From the NCBI GenBank assembly GCA_944322965.1, contig CALUQR010000008.1, positions 4,418 to 68,417 on the forward strand: a stretch of DNA of 64,000 nt, read 5' to 3'. Below the pieces are notes generated by a model. That model searched no databases, was not told the origin of the DNA, and was given only the letters and a program-made list of their open reading frames with translations. Made by a program: the position numbers and the translations under genes. The DNA is from Vulcanimicrobiota bacterium (GTDB taxonomy: Bacteria > Vulcanimicrobiota > Xenobia > Xenobiales > Xenobiaceae). This document shows, one piece after another, positions 53,007 through 64,000 of the stretch (position 1 is the first letter of the stretch; every line of letters starts with the position of its first letter).

Positions 53007-53999
53007 GTGAAGAAGCAGACCCTGCTCCTAACTTTGCGCCGCCATTTCCGCTTCTGGGTCCTAGTAGTGGCCGATGTAGTACGCAATTTTATCCGGGACG
53101 ACTGCGCCTTTATGGCGGCCGGTATCGCCTTCTACGCCTTCCTCTCCCTCTTCCCCATGTGCCTAGTCCTAGTCTCCTTCTTCGGCTGGGTGCTCTCTAT
53201 CGATTGGATCCACCAGCAGGTAGTCTTGGGCTTCTCCCAACTGAATATCATCCCCTTAGAGGAAAAATCGGGCACGGGACTGACCTACACCAGCGAGTTA
53301 GTGCGCCAACTCCTGCCGGCTACTAGCGAATGGATCGTGCGTGAACTCTCCGTCCTGGCCGAACATATCGGGCGCAACGTCCTCATCTCCGTCGTCGTAG
53401 GCCTCTGGTCGGGCCGCCATATGTTTGTAGCTATGGAATATGGCTTACAGAAGATCTGGAACCTCAGGACCCAGCGCAATTGGTTCTCCAGTAACTTAGT
53501 GAGTATGTATCTCATCTTAGTTACGGGGCTAGTCTTCACCGTGCTCCTGACCTTCACCGGGGTGATGAGTATCGTCCAGAATGTGATCGCCAACTTCAAC
53601 TTGCCCAGCTTTATGGGCTTCTCTATCGACCAGGCCATGCTCTGGAATTGGGTAGTCTCCTGGATCATGATCCCCCTAGGGGCCAGCACCCTCTTCCTCA
53701 TGATGTACCGCCTCCTCCCCTCCGAGCCCCTCCCCGTAGCCTACCTCCTCCCGGGCGCCATCTTCTCCGGCCTAGCCTGGAAATTGTCGGGCCTAGCCTA
53801 CGTCACCTACGGCGAAAAATTCGGCCAAGTCTCCGCCTTCTACGGTTCAATCTGGTACCTCGTCGGCCTTATGACCTGGCTCTATATCGTAGCCGTCGTC
53901 TTCCTCCTAGGCGCCGAAGTAGTCCACGCCTACGCCTACCAACAAAAGCTCCAAACACACTTTTTTCGAATTCGGAATTCGGAATGCGGAGTGAGCTAG
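53007..53999 (+). CDS. YihY/BrkB-family membrane protein
   Basis: AAGIAFYAFLSLFP start and a 6-TM pattern. The last ~12 codons and the stop lie inside repeat array C. Confidence 0.8.
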   Translation: MKKQTLLLTLRRHFRFWVLVVADVVRNFIRDDCAFMAAGIAFYAFLSLFPMCLVLVSFFGWVLSIDWIHQQVVLGFSQLNIIPLEEKSGTGLTYTSELVRQLLPATSEWIVRELSVLAEHIGRNVLISVVVGLWSGRHMFVAMEYGLQKIWNLRTQRNWFSSNLVSMYLILVTGLVFTVLLTFTGVMSIVQNVIANFNLPSFMGFSIDQAMLWNWVVSWIMIPLGASTLFLMMYRLLPSEPLPVAYLLPGAIFSGLAWKLSGLAYVTYGEKFGQVSAFYGSIWYLVGLMTWLYIVAVVFLLGAEVVHAYAYQQKLQTHFFRIRNSECGVS

Positions 54000-54103
54000 C
54001 CGCCGAAGGCGGCTAGCAATGCGGAATGCGTAATGCGTAATGCGGAATTAGATGGCGCTTGTTAGTGGCTTAGCGGATCCGGAAATAGCTGGACACACGG
54101 GAG

Positions 54104-54383
54104 AATCGCTGGCAGTTTCACTGCCCTAAATCTAATTCGGAATGCGCTAGCCGCCGGGACGGCCGGCGGCAATTCGGAATGCTTAGTTCGTAATTCGGAA
54201 TTAAGTCTCTACTTGTTAATGACTTGGCGGATCCGGAAATAGCTGAGCATACGGGAAAATCGTTGGCAGTTTCACTGCCTTTTGAGGGCTCTGGTTTGGC
54301 GCTTTGATGCTGGCGCTCAGATCTTAGATTTGTGTTCTGTTCCCTCATGAAGGCCTTTAGGACGCTTGTCCAATTGGACCGCG
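54104..54383 (+). repeat. ~280-bp segment X, copy 1 (short unit + centre + palindrome), near-identical to 57802-58087
   Basis: Direct alignment by eye shows only a few substitutions across ~280 bp. Confidence 0.9.
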
Positions 54384-54579
54384 GCGCGCGCCGCACACCA
54401 AGACGATTTTCTCCCCAGCCAAGTAACCTGCGGAATCAGCCGGTCATTTTCCCAGCTATCTCGCCCCTAAGTCCCGCCAAAACAAAAGTTAGGGCCACAG
54501 CCTACCTTCCCGGCTGTAGCCCCTAATTCCGAATTACGAATTCCGAACTACGCATTGCCCCCCTGCCGCCAAGTAAGTC

Positions 54580-54609
54580 TTGCGACAACCAAGGTTCCGG
54601 TTGTATACT
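54580..54609 (+). promoter_or_regulatory. Putative sigma70 promoter of rpn copy 1
   Basis: TTGCGA, 18 nt, TATACT. The same arrangement is conserved upstream of copy 2. Confidence 0.5.
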
Positions 54610-54656
54610 ATCCCCAGCGATAACTTAACTTCGACACGTATAAAGGGGGGATAGAT

Positions 54657-55649
54657 TTGGGCCACGATTCTAGTTACAAGAAGTTTTTTAGTCGCACCGA
54701 TATGGTTGAGTCACTGGTGCGAGATTTTATTTCCGGTGATCTAGCCGACGAACTCGACTTTAAGACCCTGAAGCTGATGCCTACCGTTTTTCAAAAACAT
54801 GGACAGACGGAACGGCGTGGCGATCTTATTTGGCGGCTCAAATGGAGAGACGGTAGTCCTTGTCTTTTGGCCATACTTTTAGAGTTTCAGAGTACTATCG
54901 ATAAGAAGATGCTCTGTCGATTACTGGAATATGCCACTCTCTTCTTAGAGCAAACCTTGGACGATGATAAGAGCAAAGGGCTGTCTTTGCCGCAAATTTT
55001 GCCCATTGTGCTCTACAATGGCGCCAAACCTTGGAGCGCGCCTTGCGTTTATAACGAGTTGTCGGAGCGCGAAAGGCTAGCTTATGAGCGCGGCATTTGG
55101 GATTTCAAATACCATTTAATTGACATTCGCCACCTAGAAGAATCTCTAGTAGATAAAGCTAAAGGTATCAGCGCATGGATCTTTCGCTTTGAACGAGCTG
55201 CAAGTGTCCAGGATATGGAGCGACTCTGGAGAGTGATGTTCCGCGCTCTAAGGAATCCAGCTTATGAAAATTTGCGCCAAGAGATTATAATGTGGCTAGA
55301 GACCTGCGTCTTGCCAGTCCGCAAAATATCGGGCGCTAAAATAGTTATAGAACGTTTGAAGGAGGAAGAGAAGATGACCGTAGTTACCGCCGAAATGGAG
55401 GACTGGACCCTCCCCTACATCAACCAAGGAATCAAACAAGGCCGCGCCGAAGGTGAGGCACGTGGCCTCGCAGAGGGAGAACGTATAGGCTTGAGTAAGG
55501 GAAGACGCGAAGGCGAAGCCAAAGGCATAGCCGAGAAAGCGGCCCAAGTCATCCGCCAAATGATCGCTGAAGGTTTTGAAGATAATCTAATCGCCAAATT
55601 AGTCAGCGTTCCCTTATCCGAAGTCAAAAAACTACGTCTACAAATCTAA
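54657..55649 (+). CDS. Rpn-family recombination-promoting nuclease / putative transposase (YhgA-like PD-(D/E)XK N-domain, DUF4351-like C-tail), copy 1
   Basis: HDSSYKKFF...TLKL...GDLIWRL...LLEFQST...M..RLLEY parallels E. coli RpnA/YhgA. TTG start after GGGGGGA. GC looks lower than in the neighbouring genes. Confidence 0.88.
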   Translation: MGHDSSYKKFFSRTDMVESLVRDFISGDLADELDFKTLKLMPTVFQKHGQTERRGDLIWRLKWRDGSPCLLAILLEFQSTIDKKMLCRLLEYATLFLEQTLDDDKSKGLSLPQILPIVLYNGAKPWSAPCVYNELSERERLAYERGIWDFKYHLIDIRHLEESLVDKAKGISAWIFRFERAASVQDMERLWRVMFRALRNPAYENLRQEIIMWLETCVLPVRKISGAKIVIERLKEEEKMTVVTAEMEDWTLPYINQGIKQGRAEGEARGLAEGERIGLSKGRREGEAKGIAEKAAQVIRQMIAEGFEDNLIAKLVSVPLSEVKKLRLQI

Positions 55650-56239
55650 TTCGGAGTAGGCTAGCCGCCGGGACGGCGGCTTAGCAATGCGGAATGCTTA
55701 ATGCGTAATGCGGAGTGTTCCGGCGGAAAAACCGCCGGAACAATTTGGGATGCGTAATGCGTAGTTCGGAATTAGATGGCTCTTGTTAGTGGCTTAGCAG
55801 ATCCGGAAATAGCTGGACACACGAGAGAATCGCTGGAGGCTTCGCCTCCCTTGCGGCGCGCTCCGCGCCGCACACTCCCAGCGATTTCCCCCCAGCCAAG
55901 CTACCTTCGGAACCAGTCAGCAACTAACTCCTTGCCATCTCGCCCCTACCCCACCGCAAAAACTAAAGTTAGAACCACACCCTCTCCCTCAGCCGCGCCA
56001 CCCCCAATTACGCATTACGCATTCCTAATTCCGAATTGCCCTCCCGCCGCGTCCCTCCTAATTCCGAATTACGAATTCCGAACTACGCATTACCCCCACT
56101 ACCCTCAATTCCGAATTACGCACTCCGAATTACGCATTACCGCCTCCGGCGGCAACATAAGTCTTGCGGCAACTAAGGTTACGGTTGTATACTCTCTCTA
56201 GCGGAAACTTAACTTCGATACGCGCAAGGGGGGATAGAT
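55650..56239. repeat. Composite repeat array D: hairpins and heptamers, 1 short unit (+), GC hairpin, 1 long unit (-), long heptamer tracts, promoter
   Basis: 10-bp-stem hairpin GTTCCGGCGG-AAAAA-CCGCCGGAAC at 55717-55741. GCGGCGCG-CTC-CGCGCCGC at about 55853-55871. Heptamer tracts at 56006-56140. Confidence 0.9.
56164..56193 (+). promoter_or_regulatory. Putative sigma70 promoter of rpn copy 2
   Basis: TTGCGG, 18 nt, TATACT. Syntenic with 54580-54609. Confidence 0.5.
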
Positions 56240-57232
56240 TTGGGCCACGATTCTAGTTACAAGAAGTTCTTTAGTCGCACCGATATGGTTGAGTCACTGG
56301 TGCGAGATTTTATTTCCGGTGATCTAGCCGACGAACTCGACTTTAAGACCCTGAAGCTGATGCCTACCGTTTTTCAAAAACATGGACAGACGGAACGGCG
56401 TGGCGATCTTATTTGGCGGCTCAAATGGAGAGACGGTAGTCCTTGTCTTTTGGCCATACTTTTAGAGTTTCAGAGTACTATCGATAAGAAGATGCTCTGT
56501 CGATTACTGGAATATGCCACTCTCTTCTTAGAGCAAACCTTGGACGATGATAAGAGCAAAGGGCTGTCTTTGCCGCAAATTTTGCCCATTGTGCTCTACA
56601 ATGGCGCCAAACCTTGGAGCGCGCCTTGCGTTTATAACGAGTTGTCGGAGCGCGAAAGGCTAGCTTATGAGCGCGGCATTTGGGATTTCAAATACCATTT
56701 AATTGACATTCGCCACCTAGAAGAATCTCTAGTAGATAAAGCTAAAGGTATCAGCGCATGGATCTTTCGCTTTGAACGAGCCGCTAATGTTCAGGAGATG
56801 GAGCGACTTTGGAAAGTGATGTTCCGCGCTCTCAAGAATCCAGCTTATGAAAATTTGCGCCAAGAGATTATAATCTGGCTAGAAACCTGTGTCTTGCCAG
56901 TCCGCAAAATATCGGGGGCAAAGATCGTTGTAGAACGTTTAAAGGAGGAAGAAAAGATGACCGTAGTTACCGCCGAAATGGAAGACTGGACCCTCCCCTA
57001 CATCAACCAAGGAATCAGACAAGGCCACGCCGAGGGAAGATTAGAGGGTGAGCGCATAGGCGAACTTAGAGGAAGACGCGAAGGAGAGCGCATCGGGGAG
57101 GCTAAGGGGATAGCGGAAAAGGCGGCTCAGGTCATCCGCCAAATGATCGCTGAGGGATTTGAGGATAACTTAATTGCCAGATTAGTCAGCGTCCCCTTAT
57201 CAGATGTGGAAAAACTCCGCCTACAAATCTAA
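56240..57232 (+). CDS. Rpn-family recombination-promoting nuclease / putative transposase, copy 2
   Basis: 330 aa. The first ~181 codons are identical to copy 1 apart from one synonymous change. The C-terminal third diverges. Confidence 0.88.
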   Translation: MGHDSSYKKFFSRTDMVESLVRDFISGDLADELDFKTLKLMPTVFQKHGQTERRGDLIWRLKWRDGSPCLLAILLEFQSTIDKKMLCRLLEYATLFLEQTLDDDKSKGLSLPQILPIVLYNGAKPWSAPCVYNELSERERLAYERGIWDFKYHLIDIRHLEESLVDKAKGISAWIFRFERAANVQEMERLWKVMFRALKNPAYENLRQEIIIWLETCVLPVRKISGAKIVVERLKEEEKMTVVTAEMEDWTLPYINQGIRQGHAEGRLEGERIGELRGRREGERIGEAKGIAEKAAQVIRQMIAEGFEDNLIARLVSVPLSDVEKLRLQI

Positions 57233-58454
57233 TTAGGAGTAGGCTAGCCGCCGGGACGGCGGCTAGCAATGCGGAATGCGGAATGTTCCGGCGGAAAAAC
57301 CGCCGGAACAATTCGGAATGCGTAATGCGTAGTTCGGAATTAAGTGGCTCTTGTTAATGACTTGGCAGATCCGGAAGAAACTTGGCCCATGAGAGAATCG
57401 CTGCGGTTTCACCGCGCCAAAGCTAATCCGGAATGCTTAGTGCGTAATTCGGAATTAAGTTTCTGCTTGTTAATGGCTTGGCGGATCCGGAAGTAGCTTA
57501 AACTATGGAAGAATCGCACTGGGTGCTTGAGCGCCTAATTCTTAGGTTTGTGCTCCGTTACTTGAGTGAGGCTAAATCTAATTCGGAGTGCGTAATGCGC
57601 AATGCGGAGTTAAGTGACTATTGTTAGTAGCTTGGCAGATCCGAGAATAACTTGGCCTATGAGAGAATCGCTGCGGTTTCACTGCGCCGAATCTAATTCG
57701 GAATGCGGAATTCGGAATTAGGGAAGTAAGATGCCGCCTGAAGGCGGCGGTTTAAGTTGCAGCTTGTTGGTAACTTGGCAGATCCGAAAGTAGCTGAGTA
57801 CACGGGAGAATCGCTGGCAGTTTCACTGCCTTTAGTCTAATTCGGAATGCGCTAGCCGCCGGGACGGCCGGCGGCAATTCGGAATGCTTAGTTCGTAATT
57901 CGGAACTAAGTCTCTACTTGTTAATGACTTGGCGGATCCGGAAATAGCTGAGCATACGGGAAAATCGTTGGCAGTTTCACTGCCTTTTGAGGGCTCTGGT
58001 TTGGCGCTTTGATGCTGGCGCTCAGATCTTAGATTTGTGTTCTGTTCCCTCATGAAGGCCTTTAGGACGCTTGTCCAATTGGACCGCGCGGGCTGCGGCT
58101 AACGCACTCCTAATTCCGCATTGTTTCCCCGCCAAGCCACTCACGGAATCAGCCGGTCATTTCCCCAGCCGTCTCGCCCCTAACTCCTGCCGAATCCCCA
58201 GTTAGAGCCATAACCTCTCCCCTGGCCGCGCCACCCCCAATTACGCATCACGCATTCCTAATTCCGAATTGATCTTCCCCCCAGCCAAGCCCCCTCGGAA
58301 CCAGTCAGCAACTAACTCCTTGCCATCTCGCCCCTACCCCACCACAAAAACTAAAGTTAGAGCCACAACCTCTCCCCCTGCCGCGCCTCCCCAATTACGC
58401 ATTACGCATTCCTAATTCCGAATTGCCCTCCCGCCGCGCCACCCCAATTCCGAA
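57233..58454. repeat. Composite repeat array E: 5 short-form units (+), centre segment, palindrome, 2 long-form units (-) and heptamer tracts running into the whiA 3' end
   Basis: GATCCG(G/A)A cores at about 57370, 57484, 57630, 57781 and 57935. GTCCAATTGGAC at 58072-58083. Long cores at about 58100-58260 and 58270-58410. Confidence 0.9.
57802..58087 (+). repeat. ~280-bp segment X, copy 2
   Basis: Near-identical to 54104-54383. Confidence 0.9.
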
Positions 58455-59411
58455 TTACGAATTCCGAATTACGCATTGTTGTAATCGGCGGTTGAGGGTG
58501 GTGCGGGAGAGGGGTGGATCGCAAAGTTGGCAGAGTTCGCTGAGGGTGGCTTCGGGGTTTTCTAATCTCAGGCGGGCTACGTTTTGGAGTTGGGGCGACA
58601 GTTGGTCGAGGGCGCCGCTCTCTTGTAATTCTCGGAGCTTGGCGATCTGGCGGGCGGCGGCTAGGCTGGAGCGGGCGATATTGGCGCTTTCGGCGTTGAC
58701 GCGGCGGCGCACTTCGTTGCGAGTCTCCTTGAGGGCCCGCACCTCTTCGAATTGGAGTCGCGCCAGTTGGGCTCCGATGACGCTCAGAGCTTGGGCCACC
58801 TCTTCGGCCCGTTTGAGGCTAACTACCCAACGCCTACGCCGTTGGGCCATTTGGGGGTTAAACCCCTCTAACTCTAGGGCGATCTTGACCTTCTCAGCTA
58901 AATAAAGCCGGGGCAGGGCCCACTCTAATAGGTACCCTTTCTGAGGGTCGCTCAAAGCCCCAAAGCGCAAAAAGAGGGCCCCCAACCAATGGCGCCGGCA
59001 ACAGAGTTTGAGGGTCAGATTCTTGTGGGGTCCCAAGCTAAAGTGGAGCTCTTCCCGTTCCTCAGCCTGATCTCCAGAGGTGCGGGTAGCTTGATGGCTC
59101 AGACAGTAGTGCAAGGTCCGGCGCACTTTGCTCAATTTGGGTAGGTCGATAAGTTTTAAGATATAGCGGCTAGCCACCCGTCCGGAGCGGGTCCAGAGGA
59201 ACTCTATCTCTAGGCTGCGCAAGACCTTAATAGCCCATTGGGCCAATTCTAGGGAGCTAAAGACTAAGACCGGCCCCGGATAAGAGCGCAGGGTGCGAGC
59301 CCCTTCCAAAAGGGCGGCTAAGATATAGCGCCGACAGCAGGAAGGGGGCCGATGGCGGGCGATCTGGGCCCGCACTTGACTGGCAAAAGAGGGCTGGCGC
59401 TCGGAGCTAAT
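58455..59411 (-). CDS. whiA: DNA-binding protein WhiA (probable non-AUG start)
   Basis: C-terminal HTH LSELCQLCDPPLSRTTLNRRL. The N-terminal SFASQVRAQIA...CC..Y matches the WhiA N-terminus (B. subtilis MSFASETKKEL...) but lies upstream of the first GTG (59375). The frame opens at 59423, and the only candidate start is the ATT at 59411. Confidence 0.8.
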   Translation of the reverse strand: MSSERQPSFASQVRAQIARHRPPSCCRRYILAALLEGARTLRSYPGPVLVFSSLELAQWAIKVLRSLEIEFLWTRSGRVASRYILKLIDLPKLSKVRRTLHYCLSHQATRTSGDQAEEREELHFSLGPHKNLTLKLCCRRHWLGALFLRFGALSDPQKGYLLEWALPRLYLAEKVKIALELEGFNPQMAQRRRRWVVSLKRAEEVAQALSVIGAQLARLQFEEVRALKETRNEVRRRVNAESANIARSSLAAARQIAKLRELQESGALDQLSPQLQNVARLRLENPEATLSELCQLCDPPLSRTTLNRRLQQCVIRNS

Positions 59412-62199
59412 CTTCCTCCTCCTTTAGGTCCTCTTCCGTGGAGTCGGTAGGCAAGTTCTCGTAGAAATCGGTATAATCTTCGCTTTCTACCTCGCGCTCC
59501 TGGTCCTCGTCCGCCTCTGACAGTTGGGCCGCCCCTTGCGCTTGGAGGGCGGTCACGCTCTCCGCCTGGGGCTCTGTCTCGGGCAGCTCTTCTAACTGCA
59601 GATCCTTAGTCACTACGGGGGCTACGCCAATTACCCGGTCCTCTTCGGCCACATTGATAAACTTGACCCCCGAGTTACCGCGGTGGCGCAAGCTCACCCC
59701 CTGGACGGAGGTGCGCAAGGTCACCCCTTGCAGGGTGGAGACCATCAATTGGCCGTGGGGATCGACTACTAAGGCCGCAGCCACCGGCCCCGTCTTGGGG
59801 GTAACTCTCATCCCCCACACTCCGCGCGCGCGCCGCCCTTTATAGTTGAACTCGCTCAAACGGAGCCGCGTCCCCATCCCGCGCTCACTGACTAAGAGCA
59901 ACTGCCCGCCGTGGGTATCGGAACCTAAACCCACGATAGAGTCGCCCGGCCAGAGGGTAATACTCAAAACCCCGCGCGCGCTGCGCCCTTGGAGGCGCAC
60001 TGAGGACTCGGCAAAACGCAGGACCCGCCCTTGGGCGGTCACGATAAAGAGCGAAGGCTTGGCGCTCGGTTGGGCGGCTTCAGCTTCGGCTGCGGCCTCC
60101 TCTTCGGCGCTAGCCCCCTCCTCTAAGGCCCCAGACTCCTCGACGTTAGTAAGCTCTTCGCCCTCCTCTAAGGCCGACTCTTCGCCCTCAGACTCTTCGG
60201 CCGTAGGCGCCTCGCTCTCTTCAGCCTCCCCTTCCCAACTAGAGTAGAGGGCGCTAAGCAGGGCGTCCCCTTCCGTTAAGATGAGGGCCCGCTTCCCGCG
60301 CGAGGGAATATGGAGGAATTCCGCTAAGGGGGTGCGCTTAATATACCCTTGTTGGGTGAGGGTAATGATGGAGCCGCTAGTTACGGCCGAGTCCAGAGGT
60401 ATAACTACTACCACCTTCTCGCCGGGCGCCAAGTTGAGCAGGTTGACTAGAGCCATCCCCATCGAGCCCCGCTTATTGCTGGGCAGTTCGTAGACCTTCA
60501 ACTTGTAGATGCGCGCCTGGTCGGTCAGGAAATAGAGCGTATCGTGGGCCCGGCAGGTGAAGAGCTGGACTAAGGAGTCGTCCTGCTTCAATTTCAGACT
60601 GCTGCGCCCCCGCCCTCCGCGCCCTTGGGCCCGGTACTCGGAGAGTCCTACCCGCTTAATGTAGCCGGTGCGGGACATAGTAACTACCATCTGTTCGTTA
60701 CTAATGAGATCTTCGATGGCGATCTCTTCCCCTTCGGCGGAGAAGATACGCGTCCGCCGAGGGTCGGAGTAGCGCATCTGCAGTTGGACTAACTCGTCGC
60801 GAATAGCCCCATCCAATTTGCGGCTATCCCCTAAGAGCTCTTGGCAGTAGGCGATAGTGCGCAATAAGTTCTGGTGCTCGGCGCTAAAACGCTCAAATTC
60901 TAGGCCGGTCAAGCGCTGCAGGCGCATATCTAAGATAGCTTGGGCCTGGATCTCGCTGAAGGCGTAAGTCTCCATCAGCTGGTTGCGGGCGCTATCGACG
61001 GTCGCTGAGTTTTCGATAATCTCAATAATCTCGTCGATATGTTCCAAAGCTTTTAAGAGGGCCTGGACGATATGGTCGCGGGCCAGAGCCTTATCCAGTT
61101 CGTACTGGGTACGGCGGCGCACCACTTGGCGGCGGTGGTCCAGGTAGAGGGAGAGGGCCTCTTTTAAGCTTAAAAGGCGGGGCACGTCTTGGACTAAGGC
61201 CAGCATGATGACGCTATAATTAGTCTGCAGGCGCGTATGGGCTAAGAGCCTATTGAGGACGACTTTGGCGTTGGCATTTTGGGCCAGCTCGATGACGATG
61301 CGCATCCCCTTGCGGGAGGACTCGTCGCGCAGATCGCTGATGCCAGTGAGGGTCCCCTCATTGACTTTGGCGGCGATCTCCTCTACCAACTTGGCCTTAT
61401 TGACCTGGTAGGGTATCTCGGTGACGATAATAGCCTGTTTGCCGGGGCGCACCTCTTCGATATTAGTTACCGAGCGCACCTTAATAGAGCCTCGCCCGCT
61501 GCGGTAGGCCTCGCGGATCCCATTCTGACCGCAGATAATAGCTCCGGTGGGGAAATCGGGGCCGGGGATATAGCCCATCAATTCTTCGACGCTAATTTCC
61601 GGCTTCTCTAAGAGGGCCAGGACCCCATTTAAGACCTCGCGCAAGTTGTGGGGGGGTATCTTAGTGGCCATCCCCACGGCGATCCCTTCGGAGCCGTTAA
61701 TAATGAGGTTGGGCAATAAGGCGGGGAGCACCACCGGCTCTTGGGTAGAATTATCGAAATTGGGACGCCAATCGACCGTATTCTTGCCCAGATCGCGGAT
61801 CATCTCCATAGAGATACGGGCCAATTTGGCCTCCGTATAGCGCATGTGGGCGGGCGAGTCGCCATCGACGGAGCCGAAGTTACCCTGAGGCCAGACTAGG
61901 GGGTAGCGCGTATTGAAGGGCTGAGCTAAGCGCACCATAGCGTCGTAGACGGCGCTATCGCCATGGGGATGGTAGCGGGCGATGACATTACCCACCGTGG
62001 AGGCCGACTTGCGGAACTTGCGGTCGGGGGTAATATGCTCCTCGAACATGGTGTAGAGGATGCGCCGGTGCACGGGCTTAAAACCGTCGCGCACGTCGGG
62101 CAGGGCTCTAGCGACGATGACGCTCATGGCGTAATCGACGTAGGCCTCCTTCATCCCATCCTCAATAGAGAGGGGCAGTATCTGCTGACGCTCACTCAT
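59407..62199 (-). CDS. gyrA: DNA gyrase subunit A (full length, with an acidic insertion in the CTD and an acidic tail)
   Basis: [18 protein letters not shown], catalytic Tyr in HMRYTEAKL, and a GyrA-box-like QGRGGRG at the start of the beta-pinwheel CTD. Confidence 0.95.
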   Translation of the reverse strand: MSERQQILPLSIEDGMKEAYVDYAMSVIVARALPDVRDGFKPVHRRILYTMFEEHITPDRKFRKSASTVGNVIARYHPHGDSAVYDAMVRLAQPFNTRYPLVWPQGNFGSVDGDSPAHMRYTEAKLARISMEMIRDLGKNTVDWRPNFDNSTQEPVVLPALLPNLIINGSEGIAVGMATKIPPHNLREVLNGVLALLEKPEISVEELMGYIPGPDFPTGAIICGQNGIREAYRSGRGSIKVRSVTNIEEVRPGKQAIIVTEIPYQVNKAKLVEEIAAKVNEGTLTGISDLRDESSRKGMRIVIELAQNANAKVVLNRLLAHTRLQTNYSVIMLALVQDVPRLLSLKEALSLYLDHRRQVVRRRTQYELDKALARDHIVQALLKALEHIDEIIEIIENSATVDSARNQLMETYAFSEIQAQAILDMRLQRLTGLEFERFSAEHQNLLRTIAYCQELLGDSRKLDGAIRDELVQLQMRYSDPRRTRIFSAEGEEIAIEDLISNEQMVVTMSRTGYIKRVGLSEYRAQGRGGRGRSSLKLKQDDSLVQLFTCRAHDTLYFLTDQARIYKLKVYELPSNKRGSMGMALVNLLNLAPGEKVVVVIPLDSAVTSGSIITLTQQGYIKRTPLAEFLHIPSRGKRALILTEGDALLSALYSSWEGEAEESEAPTAEESEGEESALEEGEELTNVEESGALEEGASAEEEAAAEAEAAQPSAKPSLFIVTAQGRVLRFAESSVRLQGRSARGVLSITLWPGDSIVGLGSDTHGGQLLLVSERGMGTRLRLSEFNYKGRRARGVWGMRVTPKTGPVAAALVVDPHGQLMVSTLQGVTLRTSVQGVSLRHRGNSGVKFINVAEEDRVIGVAPVVTKDLQLEELPETEPQAESVTALQAQGAAQLSEADEDQEREVESEDYTDFYENLPTDSTEEDLKEEED

Positions 62200-62202
62200 A
62201 AT

Positions 62203-63717
62203 TTACTCCTCCCCCTCCTCTAGCGGCTCTTCTTCCCCCTCTTGGGGCAGGTTAGCCGTCAAGATGCGGGTCCGGCGCGGATCGCCGTAGCGGGCTTTGA
62301 TCTCTAAAAGCTCAGTCTCTAAAAGCTCGTTCATCTTGAGGCGATTATTTAAGAGCTCCTCTAAGCGGGCGATAGTAGCCTCCAATTGGCGGGCCTCCTC
62401 TTCCAGCTTATTGCGCTCTAAGTGGGTGAGGCGCTGCAGGCGCATATCTAAGATGGCCTGGACTTGGGCTTCACTAAATTGGTAGCGCTCTTGCAACCCG
62501 CGCCTAGCCTCTTCCGTCGTCTTGGAGGCCTTGATGAGGGCGATAATCTCGTGGATATGGAGCAGCGCTTTGAGCAGTCCCTGAACGATATGGAGGCGCG
62601 CTTTAGCTTTGGCCAGTTCGTACTGGGTGCGGCGGGTAACCACCTCCAGGCGGTGATTTAAGAAGCAGTCCAGCGCTTGGCGCAAGTTGAGGATGCGGGG
62701 AGCGTTATCTACTAGGGCCAACATGATGATCCCGTAGGTAGTCTCTAAGTTGGTAGCGCTCAGAAGTTCCCGCTCTACCTGCTGGGGATCGGCCTTCTTT
62801 TTGAGCTCGAAGACGATGCGGATCCCCTTGCGGGAGGACTCGTCGCGCAGGTCGGCCACCCCGTTGATCTTCTTCTCCCTAATAGCTTGGGCCGCCCGCT
62901 CTACCAGACTGGCCTTATTGACCATGTAGGGGATCTCTTCCACAATGAGCGCTTGGCGCCCGCCCTCTTGCTCCTCTAAGCGCAGGCAGGAGCGCACCGT
63001 AATCTTGCCCCGCCCGGTGCGGTAGGCCTTCTCGATACCCGCCCGCCCTACGATCTGAGCGCCGGTGGGGAAGTCGGGCCCCTGGACGTACTCCATCAGC
63101 CCCTCGATAGAGATCTGGGGGTCCTCTAAGATAGCTACGCAGGCCTCAATAATTTCGCTCAAATTGTGGGGCGGGATGCGGGCGGACATGCCCACGGCGA
63201 TCCCCTCCGAGCCATTAATGAGCAAGTTGGGGATGACTAAGGGCAAGACGACCGGCTCTTGGGTAGAGTTATCGAAGTTAGGGCGCCAATCGACCGTATC
63301 CTTATCTAAATCGCGCACCGTCTCCATGGCTATGGGGGCCAACTTAGCCTCCGTATAGCGCATGTGGGCGGCCGGGTCCCCGTCTAAGGAGCCGAAATTA
63401 CCTTGGGGCCAGACTAGGGGATAGCGCATATTGAAGGGCTGGGCTAAACGCACCATGGCGTCGTAGACGGCGCTATCGCCGTGAGGATGGTAACGGGCGA
63501 TGACATTACCTACCGTAGCCGCCGATTTGCGGAACTTGCGCTCCGGGGTAATGCGCTCTTCGAACATAGTGTAGAGGATGCGCCGATGTACGGGCTTAAA
63601 GCCGTCCCGAGCGTCGGGCAGGGCCCTGGAGACGATGACGCTCATGGCGTAATCGACGTAGGCCACCTTCATCTCATCTTCGATGGGGGCCGCGGTCACA
63701 ATCTTACTCTCTGACAT
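62203..63717 (-). CDS. gyrA: GyrA paralogue made up of the N-terminal breakage-reunion domain only (no CTD)
   Basis: 504 aa, colinear with residues 1-~495 of the downstream gyrA, including HMRYTEAKL. It ends at DPRRTRI plus a short acidic tail. Stop TAA, then ATT, then the ATG of the next gene; GGAGGAG lies within its own last codons. Confidence 0.85.
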
Positions 63718-63759
63718 GGAATCTCCTAACTTGAGGGGCGCGAAAGTACTCTAAAAAGC

Positions 63760-64000
63760 CTAAATATCTAAGTTCTTCACTTCGCGGGCGTACTTAATAA
63801 TGAACTCCCGCCGCGGCTTAACCTCGTCGCCCATCAAGACCGAAAAGACCCGGTCCGCCTCCACGGCGTCTTCCAATTTGACTTGGCGCATCACCCGATG
63901 TTCGGGATCCATAGTCGTATCCCAAAGCTGCTCGGCGTTCATCTCGCCCAAGCCTTTATAGCGCTGGATCTCCACCTTATCCCCCATCTCCTGGCGCAGG
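63760..64000 (-). CDS. gyrB: DNA gyrase subunit B, C-terminal end (partial; continues off the window)
   Basis: [22 protein letters not shown]...REFI...A..V.NLDI is the conserved GyrB C-terminus. Confidence 0.93.

Follow-up and report, generated by a model that had tools for sequence, protein, structure and literature searches.

The stretch of DNA analyzed here, which is referred to below as the window, is a 64,000-nt part of contig CALUQR010000008.1 (positions 4,418 to 68,417; assembly GCA_944322965.1) from a Vulcanimicrobiota bacterium. Close to its end it carries three adjacent genes of type IIA topoisomerase subunits, which are, in reading order, gyrB, a short gyrA paralogue, and a full-length gyrA (Table 1). 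No other type IIA topoisomerase gene was found in the 64-kb window. The gyrB gene leaves the window, and its complete sequence in longer contigs with identical genes (L001-L004) encodes a 672-aa protein with the HATPase_c, DNA_gyraseB, Toprim, and DNA_gyraseB_C domains. The order gyrB, truncated gyrA, gyrA had been proposed in a first-pass annotation made from the letters of the window, and it was recovered here as a one-strand unit with short gaps and Shine–Dalgarno-like motifs before most of the starts. Judged by sequence comparison, the short gyrA is a real, conserved, and selected GyrA paralogue, which naturally lacks the C-terminal domain (CTD) and is restricted to one lineage.

The BLASTP alignment of the short protein with the neighboring 930-aa GyrA showed that it is colinear with the first ~500 residues of the latter, as the first-pass annotation had described, with 325 of 501 positions identical (65%) and 4 gaps. 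The only Pfam domain detected in the short protein was PF00521 (residues 31-470, E=1.5e-158). It has no match to PF03989 and no GyrA box, and its chain stops 19 residues past the RRTRI motif (residues 481-485); the long GyrA contains PF00521, PF03989 in five stretches, and the GyrA box. This end point agrees with the earlier suggestion that the protein terminates at the boundary of the N-terminal domain (NTD) and the CTD with a short acidic tail. The context of the catalytic tyrosine, which had also been reported as kept, is present as MRYTE at residues 119-123, and R120, Y121, T122, and E123 are invariant in a 31-sequence alignment. The GIAVGM (residues 172-177) and C-gate DMRLQRLT motifs are present as well, and the motif at residues 77-86 is identical to that of the long GyrA. 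Additionally, the short protein matched solved GyrA N-terminal fragments end to end, for example 4ddq_A from B. subtilis (residues 12-499, E=2.8e-172). The structural argument is based on these matches rather than on an AlphaFold2 model, because the model, which was built from the 31-sequence alignment, was of low confidence: its mean predicted local distance difference test score (pLDDT) was 68, with residues 1-180 mostly below 50, and it was not used for a fold search. The completeness of the catalytic core and its strong constraint suggest that the short protein is catalytically competent.

What replaces the CTD was also compared among the short proteins of related genomes. Every short copy ends shortly past RRT(R/K/N)I, and the tails that follow are 19-120 residues long (46-120 in the orthologues), with 29-45% Asp and Glu and a net charge of -8 to -44. 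The sequence of the tail is not conserved beyond close relatives. The pLDDT values for residues 489-504 of the short protein were below 50, and this part of the chain is predicted to be an acidic, disordered tail.

The short protein was compared with NCBIfam models of both GyrA and ParC. Its scores against the GyrA equivalog models NF004043 and TIGR01063 were 746.9 bits (cut-off 902) and 737.4 bits (cut-off 877), which is below both cut-offs, with coverage of model positions 4-484 and 3-486 only. The long GyrA exceeded the same cut-offs (1042 vs. 902 and 1028 vs. 877 bits). The short protein also remained below the cut-off of every ParC model, which were TIGR01061 (559.8 vs. 813 bits), TIGR01062 (520 vs. 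629), NF010586 (529.8 vs. 1475), NF007208, a model of 479 positions (151.7, or 152, vs. 598), and NF007209 (228.1 vs. 644). It passed the subfamily model NF004044, DNA topoisomerase (ATP-hydrolyzing), with 680.7 bits against a cut-off of 654, and this name corresponds to the label given by NCBI to an orthologue from Candidatus Bruticola, 'DNA topoisomerase (ATP-hydrolyzing) subunit A'. The annotation pipelines are inconsistent for the short proteins, which are called 'topoisomerase 4 subunit A', 'DNA topoisomerase (ATP-hydrolyzing) subunit A', or are left unnamed. Because the GyrA models outscored the ParC models (747 and 737 vs. 560, 530, and 520 bits) and all ParC cut-offs were failed, the protein is not a ParC; by these scores and by the phylogeny described below it is GyrA-derived, as the first-pass annotation had argued from its similarity to GyrA.

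A tandem copy of this kind could in principle be an assembly artefact or a decaying, strain-specific pseudogene, both of which had been named in the first-pass annotation as cases that would refute its proposal. Short-read assemblers can indeed create or collapse tandem near-repeats. The index has the exact 504-aa sequence on about 124 contigs and lists it in 130 blocks of the collection, of which 24 contigs were read. In the four contigs shown, each of which belongs to the assembly of another sample, gyrB (672 aa) is followed by short gyrA, long gyrA, and then whiA. The top group of homologues of the short protein consists of proteins of 530-604 aa with PF00521 only and 71-78% identity. An orthologue with the same gene order comes from Candidatus Bruticola (family Xenobiaceae, class Xenobia). 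The homologues ranking next are full-length GyrA proteins with at most 65% identity, several of which carry the label Eremiobacterota or Vulcanimicrobiota. A scan in which each GTDB species was represented by one genome yielded ten species-level genomes with a short-gyrA orthologue, whose sources are Hadza human gut, goat rumen, a 'RUG'-labelled genome, UBA4705, and Ca. Bruticola, and about 20 kb around the gene was inspected in each. In this survey of related genomes, gyrB, short gyrA, and a complete long gyrA were found by tblastn in nine of the ten, while the contig of the tenth (L010) stops inside the long gyrA. The whiA gene follows the long gyrA in eight of the ten, the contig of L015 ending before it; every locus of this gut-associated clade that is long enough has it there, as do the close relatives L089 and L091. 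All extracted reading frames are intact, and the gene GC content ranges from 41% to 58% across the ten further species. The recurrence of the arrangement in independent assemblies and in these species, together with the intact frames, the mutually mirrored trees of the two paralogues, and the ratios of nonsynonymous to synonymous substitution rates (dN/dS) of about 0.02-0.05 presented below, refutes both the artefact and the pseudogene, to which we give practically no credence.

The origin of the short copy was analyzed with neighbor-joining trees of the NTD, which included the short and long copies of the ten genomes together with GyrA proteins from their nearest relatives and from outgroups at a greater distance. 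The short and the long copies each formed a clade in 200 of 200 bootstrap replicates, and in 168 of 200 replicates the two clades were sisters, to the exclusion of the GyrA of the nearest relatives L089 and L091, which lack a short copy. The branching order of species is largely the same in both clades, and the short protein is nested within the Eremiobacterota GyrA, as a sister to the long GyrA of the same clade. The relatives L087, L088, L089, L090, and L091, whose GyrB proteins are 63-73% identical to that of the window, have gyrB followed directly by a single full-length gyrA. They share with the gut clade the upstream gene order Peptidase_M23, MamF_MmsF, DciA, a recF-like gene, and a GT4 glycosyltransferase gene, and then gyrB. 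Because the paralogue clades are sisters and the relatives carry gyrB and gyrA without the short copy, the phylogenetic evidence identifies the source of the short gene as a single tandem duplication of gyrA in the ancestor of the gut-associated Xenobia clade (Eremiobacterota, also called Vulcanimicrobiota).

The selection on the genes was estimated from close species pairs with unsaturated dS. The dN/dS values were 0.019-0.046 for the short gyrA, 0.013-0.032 for the NTD of the long gyrA, 0.067-0.134 for its CTD, and 0.004-0.024 for gyrB. Hence, the short gyrA is under purifying selection similar to that on the GyrA NTD. When the substitutions that define the clades were polarized with outgroups, they were distributed symmetrically: the short clade has 15 derived changes and the long clade 17, and none of the 15 short-clade changes is located within residues 1-160. 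These data bear on the possibility that the short protein is a non-enzymatic regulator or decoy, which titrates GyrB or absorbs gyrase-directed toxins or antibiotics that bind the GyrA NTD. The NTD surfaces bound by such agents are kept, including the quinolone-sensitive-type SAVYD sequence, and gut organisms are likely to meet microbial toxins. However, a decoy would not need the catalytic Arg-Tyr pair, the DNA-bending Ile motif, and the C-gate basic motif, yet all of them are invariant, and neither a dN/dS equal to that of true GyrA nor the lack of changes derived in the short clade within the first 160 residues are expected from it, which makes this explanation highly improbable.

The similarity between the paralogues is not uniform along the chain. 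The identity between short and long proteins in 40-residue windows is 0.70-0.93 over residues 1-160 and 0.38-0.70 beyond, which reproduces the profile noticed in the first-pass annotation, where identity had been described as very high over the first ~190 aa and lower afterwards. This profile is not a special feature of the pair, because mean column conservation within each of the paralogue clades is also highest (0.93-0.97) at residues 31-180 and lower afterwards. For the same reason, the high N-terminal identity was not attributed mainly to gene conversion, of which no evidence was found at the protein level: this region is simply the most conserved one in both clades, and the clades stay apart on residues 1-190 alone, with the short clade monophyletic in 70 of 100 replicates and the long clade in 97 of 100. 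Residues that are common to both copies within a genome and at the same time atypical of both clades are few and scattered along the protein. Within a genome, the two copies share identical codons somewhat more often at the N-terminus (0.71-0.74 vs. 0.53 in the window genome), a modest excess that is confounded by the genome-specific GC content at third codon positions (GC3), which ranges from 34% to 75%. Rare, short gene-conversion tracts may nonetheless exist.

Eleven positions are fixed within each clade and differ between the clades, and five of them fall in residues 380-438, which form the distal coiled coil and the C-gate. Residue 432 is His in 10 of 10 short copies, while it is Gly in 10 of 10 long copies and in 90% of the outgroups. 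This G432H change is located three residues past the position equivalent to R432 of S. aureus GyrA, which is among the arginines that form a basic patch of the C-gate at the dimer interface in S. aureus and S. pneumoniae (PMC8368997). The C-gate changes appear to fit a divergence of the main dimer interface, and they may also reflect a preference for homodimers.

The same substitutions are relevant to the possibility that the short protein mainly forms heterodimers with the full-length GyrA, in which case a gyrase with a single CTD would tune the rate or the set-point of supercoiling and no separate enzyme would be created. Such heterodimers could form, as the NTDs are 65% identical, the winged-helix and DNA-gate region is nearly the same in both proteins, and the adjacent genes are probably co-expressed. 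Their expected product corresponds to the single-CTD gyrase of B. subtilis, which still supercoils DNA, only slightly slower (Stelljes et al. 2018, PMC6061840); that enzyme was an engineered heterodimer, and the work includes no natural source of a CTD-less partner. On the other hand, the concentration of fixed differences in the C-gate, including G432H beside the dimer-interface patch, may speak against free mixing of the subunits, and a small change in rate would be a weak reason for purifying selection of GyrA strength across 11 or more species. We therefore consider predominant heterodimerization unlikely.

The arrangement of the genes is consistent with their joint expression. The gyrB, short gyrA, and long gyrA genes are on one strand in all species compared, with a gap of 9-92 nt between gyrB and the short gyrA, and an AAGGAG sequence is present at the position equivalent to the AGGAG of the window in six of the nine other species compared. 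A consensus scan, which is weak evidence, detected neither promoter-like nor terminator-like sites on the coding strand in the stretch from gyrB to whiA. These features suggest that the three genes are likely co-transcribed. At the junction of the two gyrA genes the window reads GAG GAG TAA ATT ATG, so that the stop codon is 3 nt from the gyrA ATG and the GGAGG Shine–Dalgarno sequence of the long gyrA lies within the last codons of the short gene, just as the first-pass annotation had stated. Depending on the species, the short and the long gene are separated by 3, 13, 67, 76, or 233 nt.

The stop, spacer, and start of this junction (TAA ATT ATG, 62197-62205, - strand) are also in one frame, and stop-codon readthrough would fuse both proteins. 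Readthrough was rejected as a mechanism on account of the longer spacers in the other species, and the in-frame junction in the window is probably a coincidence.

Table 1. Features of the gyrB-gyrA region and their positions in the window
Feature	Position	Strand	Basis
3′ end of gyrB, last 79 codons and stop; gene leaves the window	63760-64000	-	tblastn with the 672-aa GyrB of contig L001: 100% identity, residues 594-672
Gap between gyrB and short gyrA, 42 nt, with AGGAG Shine–Dalgarno 5 nt ahead of ATG	63718-63759	-	Sequence read directly
Short gyrA paralogue, 504 aa; breakage-reunion NTD (winged helix, tower, coiled coil, C-gate) without beta-pinwheel CTD	62203-63717	-	Open reading frame and PF00521
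Quinolone-resistance-determining residues Ser82 to Asp86 (SAVYD), short protein	63460-63474	-	Motif at residues 77-86, same in long GyrA
Catalytic Arg120-Tyr121 codons, short protein	63355-63360	-	MRYTE, residues 119-123
His432 codon, C-gate motif, short-clade substitution (RLTGLE to RLTHLE)	62422-62424	-	Clade alignment
Acidic tail of short protein, 19 residues, in place of CTD	62206-62262	-	42% Asp+Glu, net charge -8
Short/long junction GAGGAGGGGGAGGAG-TAA-ATT ahead of gyrA ATG	62200-62220	-	Sequence read directly
Full-length gyrA, 930 aa, NTD and beta-pinwheel CTD	59407-62199	-	PF00521 and PF03989
GyrA box of long GyrA, QGRGGRG, residues 525-531	60607-60627	-	Motif reading; canonical form Q(R/K)RGG(R/K)G
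Acidic insertion in CTD of long GyrA, residues 653-714	60058-60243	-	Motif coordinates
DFYENLP in acidic C-terminal tail of long GyrA, residues 911-917	59449-59469	-	Motif coordinates
whiA, 31 nt 3′ of gyrA	58455-59375	-	PF02650 and PF14527

The function that we favor for the short protein, with slightly better than even confidence, is that it pairs with the GyrB of the operon to form a non-supercoiling, ATP-dependent type IIA enzyme, which would relax and decatenate DNA. This proposal is made because the catalytic core is kept under strong constraint, because the short gyrA adjoins only one B-subunit gene, gyrB, and because no second GyrB-like clade was present among the best 120 GyrB relatives, below which a classical ParE would rank. 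In such a scheme a duplicated gyrA copy would have lost the DNA-wrapping beta-pinwheel and retained only an acidic, disordered tail; its product, presumably made from the same transcript as GyrB and the full-length GyrA, would homodimerize and bind the single GyrB of the operon. The resulting A′2B2 enzyme, devoid of CTDs, would not wrap DNA and hence would not introduce negative supercoils, and would rather behave like a conventional type IIA topoisomerase, using ATP for the relaxation, decatenation, and unknotting of DNA. One operon would in this way provide a topoisomerase IV (topo IV)-like activity beside gyrase.

The expectation about activity comes from engineered enzymes. B. subtilis gyrase without both CTDs does not supercoil DNA and retains ATP-dependent relaxation (PMC6061840), and the review PMC8216471 cites the CTD-deletion work of Kampranis and Maxwell (1996) for relaxation in place of supercoiling. 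The truncated forms (E. coli GyrA59 and GyrA64, and B. subtilis GyrA minus the CTD) have the same NTD/CTD end point and GyrA-type sequence as the short protein, and their partner is GyrB, as is presumed for the short protein, so that by analogy a similar ATP-dependent relaxation without supercoiling would be expected. These are laboratory truncations, while the Xenobia short gyrA is natural, is a gene of its own beside an intact gyrA, is under purifying selection, and has an acidic tail. Several observations weigh against the proposed relaxing and decatenating enzyme. The ATPase of CTD-less B. subtilis gyrase is stimulated by DNA only 2.3-fold, and so the enzyme might be inefficient (PMC6061840). 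Short/long heterodimers, if they form, would still supercoil, and the translational coupling over 3 nt is specific to the lineage of the window and is not conserved elsewhere.

Alternatively, the short protein could be part of a topo IV as its A subunit, with the gene of the matching B subunit, either a ParE or another GyrB-like protein, at a different site in the genome. The inspection of each genome covered about 20 kb around the short gyrA, and a classical ParE would fall below the best 120 matches of the GyrB search, both of which leave room for such a partner. However, the short gyrA directly follows gyrB in all 11 or more species, no lineage-specific GyrB paralogue is found among those 120 relatives, and the short protein is a recent offshoot of GyrA, whose N-terminal ~30 residues, which we take to contact GyrB, are close to those of the long GyrA. 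A separately encoded partner is thus improbable in our view. Returning to the pairing with the operon GyrB, a further step would be that one GyrB serves two A subunits, giving both gyrase and a topo IV-like decatenase and relaxase, in a cell from which the classical parC and parE are absent; this we put forward only tentatively, at somewhat less than even chance. If it is true, the clade would represent a present-day intermediate between gyrase and topo IV, in which the A subunit has been duplicated and specialized while the B subunit is still shared, and also an independent, convergent origin of a CTD-less decatenase.

Natural type IIA A subunits with altered or absent CTDs are known from several bacteria. 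The A subunit of Chlamydia topo IV is a ParC with zero CTD blades, and is in this respect like the Xenobia short protein a natural bacterial A subunit without a CTD (PMC8216471). Unlike this ParC, the short protein is nested in the GyrA of its own phylum and fails all ParC models. Chlamydia topo IV also has its own ParE-type partner gene, while in the Xenobia locus only GyrB adjoins. Another parallel is the 'GyrA' of Aquifex aeolicus, which functions as a topo IV according to the description of the work of Tretter, Lerman, and Berger (2010) in PMC8216471. As described there, in a protein of gyrase ancestry an altered CTD switches supercoiling to a topo IV-like activity, which illustrates that new functional paralogues can arise via changes in the CTD. 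The Aquifex protein, on the same account, keeps a CTD without a functional GyrA box and belongs to the sole type IIA enzyme of the cell, while in Xenobia the CTD is wholly deleted and a true gyrase exists alongside. A natural uncoupling of the two halves of GyrA is likewise found in Borrelia burgdorferi, which has a free GyrA CTD (PMC8216471); this is the mirror image of Xenobia, as the separate part is the CTD there and the NTD here.

In the searchable literature we found no paper on a natural CTD-less gyrA paralogue or on the topoisomerases of Xenobia. According to reviews, topo IV originated when gyrase genes were duplicated and the CTD was subsequently altered (PMC8216471). The earlier examples of this transition are old, fully separated parC/parE pairs and the Aquifex chimera, while the Xenobia clade offers a young, datable case, in which the A subunit alone was duplicated, its CTD was deleted outright, and the copy still resides between gyrB and gyrA. 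Type IIA A subunits without a CTD were already known, and the one described here is independent of ParC in origin. The short gyrA can be considered as a natural counterpart of the classic experiment with truncated GyrA, and possibly as an intermediate in the emergence of topo IV. It makes testable the questions of whether one GyrB can serve two enzymes, how mixing of the A subunits is avoided or exploited, and what an acidic tail does in place of a CTD.

Other CTD-less GyrA-like proteins were looked for among 1.84 billion cluster representatives, and some of the short matches were inspected. Of these, P0359 was rejected since it is cut off by a contig end, and P0354, P0329, P0357, and P0296 were rejected as each of them runs into the beginning of a CTD and appears to be a fragment. 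The 528-aa protein P0249, encoded on a 3.2-kb metagenome contig (L092, 1520-3106, + strand), is 52% identical to the short protein and has a basic tail after RRTRI. Its gene terminates at a genuine stop codon, none of the frames downstream encodes a CTD, and gyrB does not lie immediately ahead of the gene. P0249 is a candidate for another CTD-less A subunit of independent origin.

The long GyrA of the gut clade has peculiarities of its own. The DFYENLP sequence is present, inside a long acidic tail, in every gut-clade long GyrA recovered (L005, L008-L009, and L011-L017, the last with DFYENL). The nearest relatives without the short paralogue lack it, as do the other listed homologues except P0015, which is the GyrA of the L017 species, and it arose in the same lineage as the short copy. 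The acidic insertion of about 60 residues between the CTD blades is of variable length in the gut-clade proteins, is nearly gone in L017, and is absent from other Eremiobacterota GyrA.

On the 3′ side of whiA the window contains a repeat-rich stretch (53960-58480), the spacing of which varies between independent assemblies of the same organism. Two tandem ORFs of 330 aa with a PF04754 domain (Transposase_31, YhgA-like) are located there at 54657-55649 and 56240-57232; they sit among arrays built from units of ~7 nt, for example AATGCGG and AATTCGG, and a 300-nt stretch across each start codon is 100% identical between them. The Bruticola locus lacks this repeat region and has two T2SSE genes instead. 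On the other side of the operon, the recF-like gene (SMC_N/AAA_23) by dciA shares its strand with gyrB in the gut clade (L001, L005) and in its closest relatives L089 and L091, while in the more distant Eremiobacterota L087, L088, and L090 it has the orientation opposite to gyrB, which indicates a local inversion common to the gut clade and L089 and L091. Between the glycosyltransferase gene and gyrB, outside the window, there is an 87-aa Gly- and Leu-rich hydrophobic ORF without a Pfam match (L001, 7595-7858, + strand). It was not found in L087-L091 and was detected by tblastn in all gut-clade loci (L005, L008-L017; 35-48% identity), and from its composition it looks like a small membrane protein.

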